In this document: in pieces, positions 11,999 to 60,109 of the stretch
How the letters are laid out: every line of letters starts with the position of its first letter
Position numbering within the stretch: the first letter of the stretch is position 1
Source of the DNA: Candidatus Methylomirabilia bacterium
GTDB taxonomy: Bacteria; Methylomirabilota; Methylomirabilia; Rokubacteriales; CSP1-6
Length of the DNA stretch: 64,000 nt
Reading direction: 5' to 3'
NCBI GenBank assembly: GCA_041497115.1
Contig: JBGQFW010000013.1
Location: 1,646 to 65,645, forward strand
Notes under the pieces: generated by a model
What the model saw: only the letters and a program-made list of their open reading frames with translations
Told to the model about the DNA's origin: nothing
Database searches by the model: none
Program-made: the position numbers and the translations under genes

Positions 11999-12175
11999 TC
12001 AGGCGGTGCGGATCGCCGCCTTCACCTTCGCGAGCGTCGCGGCGTCGATCTGGCTCACGCCGTGATCCCGCCGGGCGTGCTCCGCCGCCTGCTTGAGGAC
12101 CTCCTCCTCGGTCTCCCCGCGCGCCTCGACCGAGCACCCCGGGAACAGCTCACCGCACTTCAGTGACTTCGCCAT
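11999..12175 (-). CDS. DUF1059-family small protein (58 aa)
   Basis: Not in the ORF track because it is under 60 aa. The minus-strand translation is MAKSLKCGELFPGCSVEARGETEEEVLKQAAEHARRDHGVSQIDAATLAKVKAAIRTA. It has a strong Shine-Dalgarno (GAAAGGAGAC). The pattern C...C.FEARGETEEEV...AEHA...HG is the DUF1059 signature. Confidence 0.7.
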   Translation of the reverse strand: MAKSLKCGELFPGCSVEARGETEEEVLKQAAEHARRDHGVSQIDAATLAKVKAAIRTA

Positions 12176-12193
12176 CGTCAGTCTCCTTTCGTC

Positions 12194-12343
12194 TCATTCG
12201 GGACTGGCCATGGCCAGGGCCTGCTCGCGCGTGAGGTCCATCGCGTGCACCTCGCGCGCGTGCCGCTGCGCCTGGGTGACGAGCGACTCGTCGTCGCGCG
12301 CCCGCACCACCGTTCCGCACGGACACTTGATGACCTTGTTCAT
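12194..12343 (-). CDS. DUF1059-like small protein (49 aa)
   Basis: Not in the ORF track. The translation is MNKVIKCPCGTVVRARDDESLVTQAQRHAREVHAMDLTREQALAMASPE, with a GGAGG Shine-Dalgarno 5 nt upstream. It sits 18 nt upstream of the other DUF1059 gene. Confidence 0.6.
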   Translation of the reverse strand: MNKVIKCPCGTVVRARDDESLVTQAQRHAREVHAMDLTREQALAMASPE

Positions 12344-12414
12344 GGCGCCTCCTGCCGGCCGTCCCGCTGCGTGCGATACTGCCTCGGGCGCGTTGTCTGG
12401 AGGTTGCCGGCACC

Positions 12415-54783: not shown

Positions 54784-55611
54784 TTACGCGACGAAGGGCG
54801 GAATCGGCGGAATCTCGACCTGCTGCGTGCGCACGTCGCGCACCCCGGGCACGCCGCGCGCGACCTCGACCGCCCGCTCGAGGGCGGTCGTCCCCTCGAG
54901 CGTCACGACGCCGTTGTGCGCCTCCACCGTGATGCGGTAGCGGCGCGTGTCGGCGTGGGTGGCCAGCGCCACCTGCACCCGCGAGGCCAGCGCCCGCGAG
55001 GCGATCGTCTGGCGGCCGGAGTCGCTGGTGGCCATCTCCGGGCGCCGGGCGAGCGTCTCCAGCATCTCCACGACCGCCTCGTTACGCAGCATCTCGGTGT
55101 TGACGATCAGCTCGTAGAGCATCGGGTCGGCGATGTCGACCTCGTAGAGGTAGCGCATCCGGCCGGCCTTCTCGGCGTCGTCGCGGCGCACGAACTCCGC
55201 GGCGGCGCGCTGGTTGGGGGTCTCGCCGGTCATGGACGCCACCCGCTTGATCCACTGCTTCACGCGGTGCTCGAAGGGCCCGATCAGCCGCACGCGCAGC
55301 ACGTGGGGCACGCCGCGCAGCAGCCACTGGCCGCCGCCGCGCAGCATCACGGCGTTGTCGAGCTCGGCCAGCTCGAGCAGCGTGGTTTGTAAGACCGTGA
55401 TGTGATGGCGCGTCTCGGTGTCGAAGCGCTCGAAGAAGGTGGGCTTGGACTCCTCGAGGTGCGAGAGCTTGTCCTCGTCGAGCCCGTAGCGGCGCACTGC
55501 GTCCTGGAGCAGCTCCTGATCCACGTAGCGGTACCCGAGGCGCTGCGACAGCGCCATGCCGATCTCAGGTCCGCCGGCCCCCTTCTGATGCGAGATGACG
55601 ATGATGGCCAT
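54784..55611 (-). CDS. Cytidylate-kinase-like family protein fused to a C-terminal BON domain
   Basis: 275 aa. MAIIVISHQKGAGGPEIGMALSQRLGYRYVDQELL matches the Cytidylate_kin2 family, which has a degenerate P-loop. The C-terminus VQVALATHADTRRYRITVEAHNGVVTLEGTTALERAVEVARGVPGVRDV is BON-like. Confidence 0.7.
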   Translation of the reverse strand: MAIIVISHQKGAGGPEIGMALSQRLGYRYVDQELLQDAVRRYGLDEDKLSHLEESKPTFFERFDTETRHHITVLQTTLLELAELDNAVMLRGGGQWLLRGVPHVLRVRLIGPFEHRVKQWIKRVASMTGETPNQRAAAEFVRRDDAEKAGRMRYLYEVDIADPMLYELIVNTEMLRNEAVVEMLETLARRPEMATSDSGRQTIASRALASRVQVALATHADTRRYRITVEAHNGVVTLEGTTALERAVEVARGVPGVRDVRTQQVEIPPIPPFVA

Positions 55612-55886: not shown

Positions 55887-56603
55887 TCAGCCGGCCCGGC
55901 GCCCCTCGCCGCCCGGGCGGCCCTCGGCGGTGGCCCGCGTCAGCGGTGGGCGGGCCAGGTCCGGCACGAACGAGTACGCCGGCCACGGGCCCGTCGGCAC
56001 CACCGCCACGCCCGTCGCGTGGGAGGCCACCGGCGCGATGCGGGCCAGGAACCCGGCGAGGTCCGCCCGGTCCACCAGGAACGCGATCGATGCCGCGACG
56101 TTGCCAACGCTCCCCGACGGGCGATACTGCCACTCGGCGACCCCGGCGCGCTCGACCAGCGTATCGGCGAGCGCGGCGAGCTCGCCGGCGCCCGGCCCCG
56201 CCGGCGGGGCCTCCTCGGCGCGCCGGCGGCCGCCCAGCTGCGCGTCCACCGCGTGGTCCAGCCGCAGCAGCTTCACGCTCATCTCCACGCGGCCGCGCAC
56301 CCCGTCGAGCGCCGCCGTCACCGCCGCCCGGCGCGCGGCCAGCCAGTCGCCGAGCGCGGCGGCGGGCACGCTGGAGCCGTAGCGGAACGGCACCAGGGCC
56401 GCCGCCTCGATGAGGGTGGCGACGATGTCCTGATGGACGGCCAGAGTGCGCGGGGTGGCGGGCGGGACGGCGTCGAGCAGGCTGCCGAGAACGACCACGT
56501 CGTGGACGCGGCGCGGGACGACGGAGCCATCGCCGAGACCGGTCGCCGGCGGGCGCCACGCGGCCGGGATCCGATCGACGATCGCGTAGAGGTAGAGGTT
56601 CAC
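55887..56603 (-). CDS. GvpL/GvpF-family protein (gas-vesicle-associated family), orphan copy
   Basis: 238 aa from GTG 56603, with a GGGAGG Shine-Dalgarno 11 nt upstream. Family hallmarks are present: VNLYLYAIV, ALVPFRYGSSVP, GRVEMSVKL, ASIAFLV and the C-terminal GPWPAYSF. Confidence 0.75.
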   Translation of the reverse strand: MNLYLYAIVDRIPAAWRPPATGLGDGSVVPRRVHDVVVLGSLLDAVPPATPRTLAVHQDIVATLIEAAALVPFRYGSSVPAAALGDWLAARRAAVTAALDGVRGRVEMSVKLLRLDHAVDAQLGGRRRAEEAPPAGPGAGELAALADTLVERAGVAEWQYRPSGSVGNVAASIAFLVDRADLAGFLARIAPVASHATGVAVVPTGPWPAYSFVPDLARPPLTRATAEGRPGGEGRRAG

Positions 56604-56705: not shown

Positions 56706-57437
56706 GTGAGGCTGCGACGCTCTGCGCCCGCGCTGCTGCTCGTGGCCGTCGGCCTGACGCTCGGCGCGTCGTGGGCCACCGCCGGCCGTCCCGAGCTGCC
56801 CGCGCAGCTGCCGGCCGCCGCGCGGGCGCGCCTGCAGCCCGTCACCGACAGCGCCTCGCTGGCGGTGCGAGCGGACGGTCAGCCGTTCGTCGCCCGGCGC
56901 GACATCTTCGAGTTCCTCCTCGACCATCCGGACTTCGCCACGCACGTGACCCGCACACTCAGGCTCGCCCGCTACCGGATCTGGCGGACGCCGAGCGGCC
57001 TCGCCATCGACGACGGCTGGGGCACCGTCGGCACGTTCGACATGGTGTGGTCGGCCGCCGGGGTGCGCGTGATGCACGCCCGCGGCGTCTACCATCACAG
57101 GATCCTGCCCGACATCGGCGGCCAGGCGGTCGTGCTGATCGACTACGGCGTGCAGCCGGCGGCCCAGGGCAAGAGCCAGATCAACGCCGCCGTCACCGGC
57201 TACGTGAAGCTCGACAGCCGCGTCCTCGCGGCGGCCAGCCGGCTGGCCTCGTCGGTGGCGAGGGCCAAGGGCGAGAAGGAGGCGCGCCAGCTCGTCGAGC
57301 TGTTCGCCAAGACGACCAAGGCGATCGAGAGCGATCCGGGCGGCGTCTACGACAAGGTGCGCCGCAGGCCCGACGCGCCGGCGCACGAGCTCGACGACTT
57401 CCGCCGCCTGCTCAACCTGCCGACCGCCGCCCGCTGA
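56706..57437 (+). CDS. Hypothetical secreted protein
   Basis: 243 aa from GTG 56706 with a signal peptide (VRLRRSAPALLLVAVGLTLGASWATAG). I recognise no family. It is divergent from the GvpL/F-like gene. Confidence 0.5.
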   Translation: MRLRRSAPALLLVAVGLTLGASWATAGRPELPAQLPAAARARLQPVTDSASLAVRADGQPFVARRDIFEFLLDHPDFATHVTRTLRLARYRIWRTPSGLAIDDGWGTVGTFDMVWSAAGVRVMHARGVYHHRILPDIGGQAVVLIDYGVQPAAQGKSQINAAVTGYVKLDSRVLAAASRLASSVARAKGEKEARQLVELFAKTTKAIESDPGGVYDKVRRRPDAPAHELDDFRRLLNLPTAAR

Positions 57438-59322
57438 GCGCGCGGCGCACCCGCGCCAGCCCCTCGCGGAAGCGCGGCAGGTCGGGCCCCAGCCGCACGG
57501 CCGCCGCGTAGGCGGTCTCCGCCGCCTCGTGGCGCCCCTGCTCGTACAACGCCCGGCCCAGCCGGGCATGCGCGTCGGCGTGGTCCGGCCGCACGTCGAG
57601 GAACGCGCGCGCGGCCGTCTCCAGCTCGCGCCACTTCGCCTGCCCCTCCAGCGCCTGCCAGAGATCGAAGTGCGCCTGGGCCGCCTCGAAGCTGAGGCCG
57701 ATGGTCGTGCGGGCCGCCGCCTCGGCCTCGGGCCACCGGGCGACCGCCACGAGCACGTGCGTGAGCCCGGCGGCGGCGGCGATCGAGTCGCCCTGGAGCC
57801 TCAGCGCGTCGCGGTAGGCGGTCTCGGCCTCGCCCAGGCGGCCCGCCTCGGCGAGCAGCTCGCCGAGGTCGCAGCGCGCGCGCGCGTAGTCCGGCTTCAG
57901 GCGGATCGCCGTCTCGAACGCCGCCTGCGCCTCGTCGTGCCGCCCCTGCCAGTAGAGCGACACCCCGAGCCCGCGGTTGAGCGCCGGGTGATCGGGCCGC
58001 CGCTCGAGCGCCTCGCGGTAGGCGACTTCCGCCTCGGCGTGACGCCCCTGGCGCCCGAGACCGAGCGCGATGTTGCCGCGCGCGCGCAGGTGATCGGGCT
58101 CGAGCCGGGTCGCCTCGCGCAGGGCGCGCTCGGCCTCGGCGTGGCGCCCCTGGCGGCCGAGCGCGACACCGAGCTCGTAGTGCAGCTCGGCGTCGTCCGG
58201 CCGCAGCCCGACGGCGCGGCGCAGCGACGCCTCGGCCTCCGCGTAGTGGCGGAGCGCGCCGAGGGCGAGGCCGTGGCCGGCATGCAGGTCGGCGTCGCCG
58301 GGCCGCAGGCGGATCGCCTCGGCGTAGGCGGCGGCGGCGGCCGCCCACCGTCCCTGGCGCCAGTGGACGACGGCCAGCGCCGCGTGGGCGGCCGCGAAGC
58401 GCGGGCGCAGCCGCACCGCCTCGCCGAGCGCCGCCGCCGCGTCGTCGAAGCGGCCCTGACGCTCGAGCACGACGCCCAGGTGATAGTGCGCGCGCGCCTC
58501 GCCGGGCGCCAGCCGCAGCGCCTCGCGGAACGCCTCGGCCGCCTCCGCGTAGCGATGGCGATGGCGGAGGTTCAGCGCGAAGGTCTGGCGCAGGGCGGGA
58601 TCCTCGGGCCGCCGGCGCAGCGCCGCCCGGAGCGCCCGGGTGGCGTGGCCGGTGCGCCCCTGCCGCTCGAGCGCGAGGCCGAGGCCCAGGTGCGCGCGGG
58701 CCTCCAGCGGGCGCGCCTCGATGACCGCCCGGAACGCGTCGGCCGCCTCGACGTGACGCCGCTGCTCGAGCAGCGCGCCGGCCAGGGTCAGCTGCAGGGC
58801 GGGGTCGCGCGCCCCCGCCGCGAGCGCCGCGCGCGCCAGCGCCTCCGCCTCGGCCGGGCGCCGCTGGCGGCGGAGCACCAGCGCGAGGTTCGCGCAGGCC
58901 AGCGGGTCGCGCGGCTTGAGACGCAGCGCCTCGCGCAGGGCGGTCTCGGCACCGGCGAAGTCGCCCTGGCGCTCCCGCGCGAGGCCCAGGGCCAGATGCG
59001 CCTTCGCGAAGTCGGGACGCAGGCGCACCGCCTCGGCGTAGGCGCCGGCGGCGGCGGCGAAGCGGCGCTGCTCGAAGAGCACGGCGCCGAGATCGGCGTG
59101 GGTGGACGCGACGGCGGGCGCCGCCGCCAGCGCCTCGCGCAGCAGCGTCTCGGCCTCGGCGGGGCGGCGCAGCCGTCGCAGCACCGCGGCCAGCTCGGCG
59201 CGCAGCCGCCCGTCCTCGGGACGCCGGCGCAGCGCCTCGCGGAACGCGACCTCGGCCTCGGCCCACCGGCCGGCGACCACGCGCGCGCGGGCCCGATCAC
59301 ACCAGCGCTTGAACTCGTCCAT
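57412..59322 (-). CDS. Tetratricopeptide-repeat protein (about 16-18 consecutive TPR units)
   Basis: 636 aa made almost entirely of 34-aa units of the form A..A...GRxxEAxxAyREALRLrPDxa. Confidence 0.85.
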   Translation of the reverse strand: MDEFKRWCDRARARVVAGRWAEAEVAFREALRRRPEDGRLRAELAAVLRRLRRPAEAETLLREALAAAPAVASTHADLGAVLFEQRRFAAAAGAYAEAVRLRPDFAKAHLALGLARERQGDFAGAETALREALRLKPRDPLACANLALVLRRQRRPAEAEALARAALAAGARDPALQLTLAGALLEQRRHVEAADAFRAVIEARPLEARAHLGLGLALERQGRTGHATRALRAALRRRPEDPALRQTFALNLRHRHRYAEAAEAFREALRLAPGEARAHYHLGVVLERQGRFDDAAAALGEAVRLRPRFAAAHAALAVVHWRQGRWAAAAAAYAEAIRLRPGDADLHAGHGLALGALRHYAEAEASLRRAVGLRPDDAELHYELGVALGRQGRHAEAERALREATRLEPDHLRARGNIALGLGRQGRHAEAEVAYREALERRPDHPALNRGLGVSLYWQGRHDEAQAAFETAIRLKPDYARARCDLGELLAEAGRLGEAETAYRDALRLQGDSIAAAAGLTHVLVAVARWPEAEAAARTTIGLSFEAAQAHFDLWQALEGQAKWRELETAARAFLDVRPDHADAHARLGRALYEQGRHEAAETAYAAAVRLGPDLPRFREGLARVRRALSGRRSAG

Positions 59323-59360
59323 GGCGTCGGCGCCCGCCGCCGACGGGCGCGAACGCTATC

Positions 59361-59723
59361 CTAACAAGGCGCCGGCGCGGGGACGGCGGCCAACGCGCGA
59401 CGGTAGAGGTCGTCGGTGAAGCCGCGGACGAGCAGATCGCCCGCGATCAGGACGGGCACGCGCAGGAAGCCGTCCTCGTGCACCAGCAGGGCGAGGACGT
59501 CGGCGTCGCCGACGGGCTGCCGCGCGCGATCGAGCTCGACGACGGCCGCGCCGCTCTTGACGAGGAAGCGGCGGACGCCGCGGGCCAGCGCCAGCGTGGC
59601 GGCGCCGTCCACCGGGGCCCGCTCGACGCGACGGTCGTCGAAGCCCACGCGACGCTGCGAGAGGAACTCTCTCGCGCGCTCGCAGGTGGGTCAGCCGTCC
59701 TTGTTGAAGAGGACGACCGTCAC
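59361..59723 (-). CDS. ArsC/Spx-like thioredoxin-fold protein with an in-frame TGA at the first Cys of CxxC (candidate selenoprotein, U-P-T-C)
   Basis: GTG 59723 forms a GTGA overlap with the receiver-gene stop. The translation is VTVVLFNKDG-[TGA 59693..59691]-PTCERAREFLSQRRVGFDDRRVE...LRVPVLIAGDLLVRGFTDDLYRRAL. It is one frame of 120 codons, a normal size for the family. The ORF track shows only the 95-aa tail (59361..59648). Confidence 0.55.
59644..59690 (-). promoter_or_regulatory. SECIS-like mRNA hairpin immediately 3' of the in-frame UGA
   Basis: The minus-strand RNA is CCCACCUGCGAGCGCGCGAGAGAGUUCCUCUCGCAGCGUCGCGUGGG. The helices are CCCAC/GUGGG, GCGA/UCGC, CGC/GCG and GCGAGAG/CUCUCGC, giving about 19 bp with small bulges. 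The apical loop AGUUC contains GU. Confidence 0.4.
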
Positions 59724-60109
59724 CGCTTGGGCCCCGTCGGCCGGTCGAAGATCGTGGCCAGCATGTGATCGAGGTAGCGGAAGTCGAAGGGCTTGGGCAC
59801 GTAGCCGAAGGCGCCGCTCTTCAGCGCCTCCGCCGCCAGCGCCACCTGCTCGTTGGCGGTGACCATGATCACCGCGATGGACTCGTCGATCTGCTTGATG
59901 TCCTTGAGGACCTCGACACCGTTCATGCGCGGCATGTTGATGTCGAGCAGGACCACGTCGGGGCGCTGCCGGAGGACGGCGCCCAGCGCGTCGGCGCCGT
60001 TGAGCGCGGTCTCGATGTCGTAGCTCGCCTTGAAGTGCTCGCTGAGCACTTCCAGGATCAGCGGCTCGTCGTCGACGATCAGGACCCGCTTGCGCGCGGC
60101 GTCGGCCAT
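59720..60109 (-). CDS. Stand-alone CheY-like response-regulator receiver protein
   Basis: 129 aa with RVLIVDDEP, DVVLLDINMPRMNG, VIMVTA and YVPKPF motifs. There is no output domain. Confidence 0.85.
   Translation of the reverse strand: MADAARKRVLIVDDEPLILEVLSEHFKASYDIETALNGADALGAVLRQRPDVVLLDINMPRMNGVEVLKDIKQIDESIAVIMVTANEQVALAAEALKSGAFGYVPKPFDFRYLDHMLATIFDRPTGPKR

Follow-up and report, generated by a model that had tools for sequence, protein, structure and literature searches.

A probable ArsC/Spx-like selenoprotein gene with a conserved in-frame UGA and SECIS hairpin in Rokubacteriales

The reading frame and its conservation

The subject of this analysis is a candidate selenoprotein gene on the minus strand of a 64,000-nucleotide (nt) stretch of Rokubacteriales DNA (contig JBGQFW010000013.1; the whole stretch is hereafter called the window). 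The frame opens with GTG at 59723-59721, runs into an in-frame TGA at 59693-59691 and closes with TAG at 59363-59361, giving 120 sense positions with the TGA included. Its translation begins VTVVLFNKDG, reaches the TGA and continues as PTCERAREFLSQ..., while the GTG start overlaps the TGA stop codon (59722-59720) of a response-regulator gene upstream as GTGA. The open reading frame (ORF) list supplied with the window contains only a 95-amino acid (aa) remainder, from GTG 59648. An earlier reading made from the letters of the window (the sequence-only reading) had proposed the frame with its start at 59723, the TGA at 59693-59691, its stop at 59361 and a length of 120 codons; all of these coordinates were reproduced, and its remark that the supplied ORF track misses the full gene, showing just the 95-aa piece, was accurate.

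Related loci comprised six Rokuibacteriota metagenome-assembled genome (MAG) loci, 80 metagenome loci (of 240 relatives confirmed in a metagenome scan) and loci matching the 95-aa product. A TGA stands at the aligned codon in 86 of the 95 related loci and a TGC in the other nine, and every locus with a named source belongs to Rokuibacteriota/Methylomirabilota. The truncated 95-aa product itself is present on at least 10 contigs. Six independent assemblies agree with the window over the 420 nt surrounding that product bar one synonymous change, and all six have the TGA; a TGC or TGT misread as TGA, one of the artefacts against which the sequence-only reading had cautioned, is therefore excluded. 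Disrupted downstream frames in TGA-bearing orthologues had been named as another warning sign; instead, the frames of the TGA loci are open and conserved on both sides of the codon, across 86 loci and at identities down to ~48 %.

The seven codons before the TGA read [IV]-L-Y-N-[KR]-x-G across 50 distinct upstream segments, with synonymous variation (e.g. TAC/TAT and ATC/ATT). This conservation begins right after an ATG or GTG start codon positioned 9-12 codons before the TGA and collapses upstream of it. Downstream, the TGA loci share the conserved protein block PxC...AREx LS, and the motif U-P-x-C (U, selenocysteine, Sec) occurs in each of the 69 unique Sec-form genes, being U-P-T-C in the window.

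A protein search returned 142 relatives, nearly all called as fragments of 73-98 aa with a query coverage of 50-80 %, as is to be expected of gene callers when a whole family shares an in-frame stop. The called products begin at differing residues, such that no internal start is conserved. All of the public calls found were truncated (73-98 aa) and named 'hypothetical' or 'arsenate reductase-like', and none was marked as a selenoprotein. An exhaustive search of 1.84 billion cluster representatives gave 47 relatives only, mostly truncated at the N-terminus; the distant full-length relatives among them read CPAC, CPSC, CRDC or CDTC at the motif. The expectation that homologues would carry Cys in the TGA column was thus borne out by these distant CxxC proteins, by the clade of TGC paralogues and by the alignment of YffB and a staphylococcal ArsC-like protein described below.

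TGA otherwise behaves as a normal stop codon: it ends 10 of the 15 called genes in the same species (the adjacent response regulator included), and elsewhere in the window it is found at ordinary boundaries between genes. It follows that recoding must be a matter of local context. Screening the window for in-frame TGA codons by codon-position GC content gave 40 candidates, of which the six inspected were stop-then-start boundaries or non-coding frames, with no further selenoprotein gene among them.

The hairpin downstream of the UGA

Folding of the 50 nt from the TGA onwards gave a hairpin of 19 pairs over 59690-59644 with the apical loop AGUUC (-30.2 kcal/mol, z = -4.0, 0/200 shuffles as good), and the 19-nt apical core at 59675-59657 is stable by itself (-10.6 kcal/mol, z = -3.2). 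The sequence pattern of this core, as a selenocysteine insertion sequence (SECIS), occurs once in the window against 0.05 occurrences expected by chance. The two arms of the stem lie at 59675-59669 and 59663-59657 (alignment columns 19-25 and 31-37 when numbering starts at the T of the TGA) and enclose a loop of 5 nt.

Among relatives, the 7-bp stem has the consensus GCGAGRG/CUCUYGC with a loop A-G-[G/U]-N-Y, located 22 nt after the UGA in every Sec form; it is present in 36 of 36 distinct sequences of the alignment and paired in all but one of them. Variation within the stem is limited to A-U to G-U (15 versus 21 sequences) and G-C to G-U (3 sequences). The loops seen (AGUUU, AGUUC, AGGAU, AGGCU and AGUCU) conform to the published bacterial SECIS (bSECIS) loop consensus N1-G-[G|U]-N-N2 (PMC13188914). 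We also applied the published bSECIS criteria, namely a loop of 3-9 nt, an upper stem of 4-16 bp, a G at loop position 1 or 2, a distance of 16-37 nt from the UGA to the loop and an energy of <= -7.5 kcal/mol (PMC13188914, Fig. 2). All 45 unique Sec-form elements conform to every one of them, with a spacing of 22 nt and core energies from -7.7 to -11.3 kcal/mol. On the SECIS check that the sequence-only reading had recommended, the hairpin fits the published model.

The lower part of the hairpin fared differently. Across 36 distinct relatives, its 12 pairs are no more conserved in register than shuffled controls (63.7 % of cells paired versus 65.4 % in shuffles), and most relatives fold a lower stem of their own in a different register; the lower stem was therefore left out of the conserved model. 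The hairpin of about 19 bp originally proposed at 59644-59690, with its AGUUC loop, does fold as described, but conservation is limited to its upper 7 bp and the loop.

Synonymous sites were tested because the stem sits in coding sequence. Its codons are fixed among the 69 unique genes (GCG 69/69, AGR, i.e. AGA or AGG, 69/69, GAG 69/69, CTC 69/69 and TCG 65/65), while Glu, Leu, Gly and Val codons in the flanks show free variation. AGR accounts for 5.8 % of the Arg codons elsewhere in the same genes and for 1 of 107 in two neighbouring genes of the window. The TGC paralogues have no SECIS hairpin and use ordinary codons in the same region. This codon pattern amounts to RNA-level selection on the stem, tied to the presence of the TGA. 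The stem Arg codon (59669-59674, minus strand) is always the rare AGA or AGG in the 69 related genes despite a genomic G+C content of 74 %, and this rare-codon signature could help to flag coding-region SECIS elements in other high-GC genomes.

Protein fold, decoding and alternative readings

For protein family searches, U was written as C, as the sequence-only reading had advised. The protein passes the Pfam gathering thresholds for both ArsC (PF03960, 27.4 bits versus 24; residues 11-109 on profile positions 6-78 of 79) and Glutaredoxin (PF00462, 31.3 bits versus 22.9); the latter match is confined to residues 3-38 on profile positions 1-36 of 60, and the remainder aligns with ArsC-family proteins. 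Its best NCBIfam match is NF041106, 'ArsC family (seleno)protein' (ArsC_rel_Se_1), at 50.9 bits versus a cutoff of 85. The same model scored 45.1-54.9 bits on four Sec-form relatives, again below the cutoff, and it is the top curated family for every relative tested. A profile built from eight family members matched YffB (1rw1) over its full length (E = 3.5e-7), as well as Spx (E = 3.5e-5 to 1e-4) and the staphylococcal ArsC-like CxxC protein 2m46, and in these alignments the Sec column coincides with the N-terminal Cys of YffB, 2m46 and Spx.

An AlphaFold model of a Cys-type paralogue (P0012; predicted local distance difference test score, pLDDT, 90.7) places strand beta-1 at residues 3-7 and the Sec-equivalent Cys12 just before helix alpha-1 (residues 13-24); on this model, the conserved block before the TGA is predicted to be strand beta-1 of the thioredoxin fold. 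The earlier suggestion that the 95-aa remainder would be devoid of both the beta-1 strand and the active site agrees with the model and with the profile alignments. The best structural matches of the model in the PDB are YffB, Spx and the ArsC family (probability 1.00, template modelling (TM) score ~0.50-0.56, root-mean-square deviation 6-8 A). A beta-hairpin is modelled at residues 53-66, in the insert between the two halves of the thioredoxin-like core, where solved ArsC, Spx and YffB structures have a helical insert.

Two specific assignments within the superfamily were rejected. The Spx/MgsR regulator model TIGR01617 scored 25.6 bits versus a cutoff of 75.05, and the protein reads L-R-V-P-V-L with no RPI motif; on alignment with YffB, the Arg of R-V-P-V falls one position upstream of where the family has its Arg. 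The model for glutaredoxin-coupled arsenate reductase ArsC, TIGR00014, was absent from the 19 NCBIfam families matched at E <= 1.

Our preferred reading, to which we assign a probability of about 0.85, is that 59361-59723 constitutes a single gene for a ~13-kDa thioredoxin-fold protein of the ArsC/Spx/YffB superfamily with Sec-Pro-Thr-Cys near its N-terminus, the UGA being read as Sec. Translation would start at GTG 59723, coupled to termination of the response regulator. The hairpin at 59675-59657, lying within the coding sequence (CDS), would recruit SelB, and SelB together with Sec-tRNA(Sec) would decode the UGA at 59693-59691. In the product, Sec11, at the N-terminus of helix alpha-1, would attack a substrate disulfide or another oxidised species, and Cys14 would then resolve the intermediate as an intramolecular selenenylsulfide. 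Judging from the general chemistry of UxxC thioredoxin-fold selenoproteins, from which this cycle is drawn, the protein is most likely a selenol/thiol oxidoreductase.

Several observations weigh against Sec insertion. No fully compensatory double substitution was seen in the SECIS stem among the 36 sequences; hence, the stem's structural support consists of synonymous-site freezing and G-U-compatible changes and not of classical covariation. Across the window, no Rfam family was found at gathering thresholds, and relaxing the search to E values up to 10 over 59560-59760 gave chance matches only (one microRNA and two small RNAs). Searches with tblastn using E. coli SelA, SelB and SelD gave no match in the window and 100 related loci (581 kb), and ARAGORN detected no tRNA within the window, while the 67 tRNAs that it reported over all 581 kb include no tRNA-Sec; as only 581 kb were sampled, this lack of Sec genes is uninformative. 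Lastly, one full-length relative of 138 aa (P0125) carries Arg at the Sec column (YSRSD-R-PSC). Judging from its sequence, it may be a real variant, a copy that has been inactivated or the result of misassembly. An Arg codon CGA would be one base from TGA.

The literature on the phylum offers circumstantial support for Sec use. Rokubacteria are now classed as the order Rokubacteriales of the phylum Methylomirabilota (PMC8780371). A review (PMC13188914) cites Deng et al. (2026) for the prediction of 63 selenoprotein genes in one MAG of this phylum, and Sec-type group 4 hydrogenases have been reported in Methylomirabilota (PMC13582414).

Alternative readings differ in how the UGA is decoded or in whether it is decoded at all. 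The same SECIS/SelB route might deliver Cys through a SelC*-type tRNA (tRNA-ReC), yielding a CxxC product. Such a tRNA has been described, and searched for in Sec-using MAG lineages (PMC13582414), and the sequence data here do not separate Sec from Cys; nonetheless, a plain TGC would lead to that product without the cost of keeping a SECIS, there are TGC paralogues that have no hairpin, and the retention of TGA in 86/95 loci alongside a constrained SECIS argues for a benefit beyond Cys. The phylum is moreover reported to be rich in selenoproteins (PMC13188914), and we regard Cys insertion as quite improbable. If the TGA were a true stop, the locus would be a pseudogene or would produce the 95-aa protein from GTG 59648 only, leaving the 10-codon ORF functionless. 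All public gene calls (73-98 aa) take that view, and no Sec machinery was found in the 581 kb searched, but the reading is strongly disfavoured: protein-level conservation covers the nine or ten codons that precede the TGA, the P-x-C that follows it and the region as far as the called starts, the internal start is unconserved among called products, the 95-aa product would have neither strand beta-1 nor the active-site motif, and one identical lesion, with no others, is not what would be expected of a pseudogene across 86 loci down to ~48 % identity.

A short coupled ORF followed by a stable hairpin is also superficially reminiscent of a leader and attenuator, in which case the 10 codons would encode a leader peptide and the hairpin would act as an attenuator or a termination-reinitiation device, possibly linked to the regulator. 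We find this very improbable, given that the supposed leader is conserved as a beta-1 strand in frame with the rest, that the hairpin lies inside conserved coding sequence and has no U-tract, that the regulator is missing from 67 loci with the same TGA and hairpin and that the homologues are continuous CxxC proteins. Least credible of all, and refuted by the data, is an artefact of sequencing or assembly or a change across the lineage that makes TGA a sense codon (Trp or Gly), for which the bare presence of an in-frame TGA speaks and nothing more; the identical TGA recurs in the six independent assemblies, the species uses TGA to end 10/15 called genes, among them the adjacent response regulator, TGA marks ordinary gene boundaries elsewhere in the window, and the residue that homologues carry at the column is Cys and neither Trp nor Gly. 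A bolder version of Sec insertion would make the Rokubacteriales clade a separate selenoprotein family, as opposed to a divergent branch of NF041106, with its own beta-hairpin insert in place of the helices of ArsC and Spx. In the window's sub-lineage, the protein would sense or regulate redox state by means of Sec, in partnership with the CheY-like regulator to which its translation would be coupled, within the kept order of response regulator, selenoprotein and repeat protein. We consider this unlikely; were it true, it would represent a selenium-dependent, Spx-like input into two-component signalling.

Genomic context and known relatives

The features of the locus and the Cys-type paralogues are collected in Table 1.

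Table 1. Features of the predicted selenoprotein locus (window coordinates, except for the paralogues)
Feature	Position	Strand	Remarks
Predicted selenoprotein CDS	59361-59723	-	120 residues including Sec, plus TAG stop; ArsC/Spx/YffB-like thioredoxin fold, motif U11-P-T-C14
GTG start codon	59721-59723	-	GTGA overlap also in L016 and L017; family starts lie 9-12 codons before the TGA
In-frame TGA, putative Sec codon (U11)	59691-59693	-	Conserved among loci; aligned to the first Cys of CxxC in distant homologues
TGC, Cys14, presumed resolving Cys of UxxC	59682-59684	-	Cys in 69/69 unique Sec-form genes (TGC 52, TGT 17)
Conserved SECIS core, stem GCGAGAG/CUCUCGC with loop AGUUC	59657-59675	-	Consensus fold, bSECIS criteria, frozen codons, pattern unique in window
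Extended 19-pair hairpin	59644-59690	-	Lower stem lineage-specific; relatives use other registers
Upstream stand-alone receiver-domain response regulator, 129 aa	59720-60109	-	PF00072, 107.7 bits; stop overlaps start of predicted selenoprotein
Downstream repeat-rich ORF, 636 aa	57412-59322	-	Starts 39 nt after stop of predicted selenoprotein; TPR-like by eye; no Pfam match on record
Cys-type paralogues	L013 10001-10366; L014, L015, L081, L088, L092-L095		Protein P0012 in clade

The sequence-only reading had called the translational coupling to a response regulator unusual. This arrangement does not extend to the family: the regulator adjoins the gene in 10 loci, confined to the window's sub-clade, and is absent from 67 loci with enough upstream sequence. 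The ten loci include L016 and L017, which have the same GTGA overlap, and L018 and L051. The 636-aa ORF also follows the gene in L007-L012, and L018 and L051 have it there at ~59 % identity. Four divergent homologues occupy unrelated neighbourhoods, and among the related loci no neighbourhood is conserved across the family that could serve as a functional clue. The regulator coupling is a lineage-specific arrangement, and as it is limited to the sub-clade, the gene behaves as a stand-alone redox gene.

Within the sub-clade, the order of receiver regulator, predicted selenoprotein and 636-aa repeat protein (57412-60109) is kept down to ~61-66 % selenoprotein identity (L016, L017, L018 and L051), and ABC-transporter genes and a hybrid histidine kinase are found upstream. 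In two divergent homologue contexts (L096 10293-11111 and L097; P0018 contigs), the predicted selenoprotein gene is succeeded by a 117-126-aa ORF with no Pfam match and then by a convergent thioesterase of the 4HBT type, a recurring pair of neighbours that the window lacks.

The TGC forms constitute a separate clade with the motif C-[ND]-C-P-[SA]-S. Here, the Sec column retains a Cys, the resolving Cys at +3 has become Ser and a new Cys appears at -2. The neighbourhood of these paralogues differs (Uma2, TauD and a solute-binding protein), and a Cys paralogue scored 26.6 bits on NF041106.

Elsewhere in the window, coordinate transfer from L009 places a GvpL/GvpF gas-vesicle protein (PF06386) at 55887-56603 and a cytidylate-kinase-like and BON-domain protein at 54784-55611, both on the minus strand; gas-vesicle genes in a Rokubacteriales genome may merit a look. 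At ~12000-12400 (minus strand), two adjacent small Cys-rich ORFs (MNKVIKCPCGT... and MAKSLKCGELFPGCS...), with a true TGA stop at 12196 between them, resemble a tandem pair of paralogues for a small protein that binds metal.

What is new here is modest and concerns mainly annotation and the mapping of the selenoproteome of an uncultured lineage. A literature search found no paper linking Rokubacteria to this protein. Hundreds of gene calls in Rokubacteriales/Methylomirabilota would be corrected by extending NF041106 or by building a sister model. The lineage, which is abundant and uncultured in soil and groundwater and has lately been reported to be selenoprotein-rich, gains a well-conserved predicted selenoprotein with Sec in ~90 % of sampled loci. 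The locus also provides a worked bSECIS example backed by frozen synonymous sites, including the rare-codon AGR, and not by covariation. The understanding of Sec decoding and of the ArsC family is unchanged.

The closest curated counterpart is NF041106, whose members have the same UxxC at the same N-terminal position and the same size, aligning end to end (model positions 4/5-107 of 107). However, the present clade scores 45-55 bits versus the cutoff of 85, outside trusted membership, and its named members are soil and groundwater Rokuibacteriota, Methylomirabilota and NC10 MAGs, whereas the NF041106 family was defined from marine data. As regards Spx and YffB (1z3e, 3gfk and 6ghb; 1rw1), the redox Cys occupies the same position and the profile match is full length, but the TM score of the paralogue model reaches only ~0.50-0.56, that model has a predicted beta-hairpin in the insert, and the window protein has R-V-P-V in place of RPI. 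We know of no link to RNA polymerase for the family of the window protein, unlike for Spx. The beta1-UxxC-alpha1 unit also matches Sec-glutaredoxin (PF00462) and the 'UXX-star' proteins (NF041212, 31-41 bits, and NF041114); these matches cover just the first ~40-55 residues and fall below the NCBIfam cutoffs, and the window protein is ~40 residues longer, with an ArsC-type insert.

ArsC-family selenoproteins have been reported from the Sargasso Sea and from sequenced Deltaproteobacteria, as 'ArsC-like' proteins in Desulfotalea and Desulfuromonas (PMC1794560). The Global Ocean Sampling (GOS) survey subsequently listed 42 Sec sequences of 'Arsenate reductase 2, cd03032, UxxC' and 77 of 'ArsC 1, pfam03960, UxxS' (PMC2398784), and a 2026 selenoproteome review, citing that survey, has NF041106 under the name 'Arsenate reductase-like protein, UxxC' (PMC13188914). 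As predicted for the window protein, these are ArsC/Spx-superfamily proteins with Sec in place of the first redox Cys, with Cys homologues and with a bSECIS directly downstream; they come from other phyla and habitats, and are likened here by description, not by sequence. The UxxS 'ArsC 1' type has no resolving Cys, whereas the window protein has Cys14. The sequence-only reading was right to recall that ArsC-like selenoproteins are known from metagenomic surveys, the UxxC types having been catalogued by GOS in 2008 and by NF041106, and the window gene, a homologue that is read as working in the same way, is assigned to a sister clade of these known UxxC ArsC/Spx-like selenoproteins, catalogued since 2005-2008.

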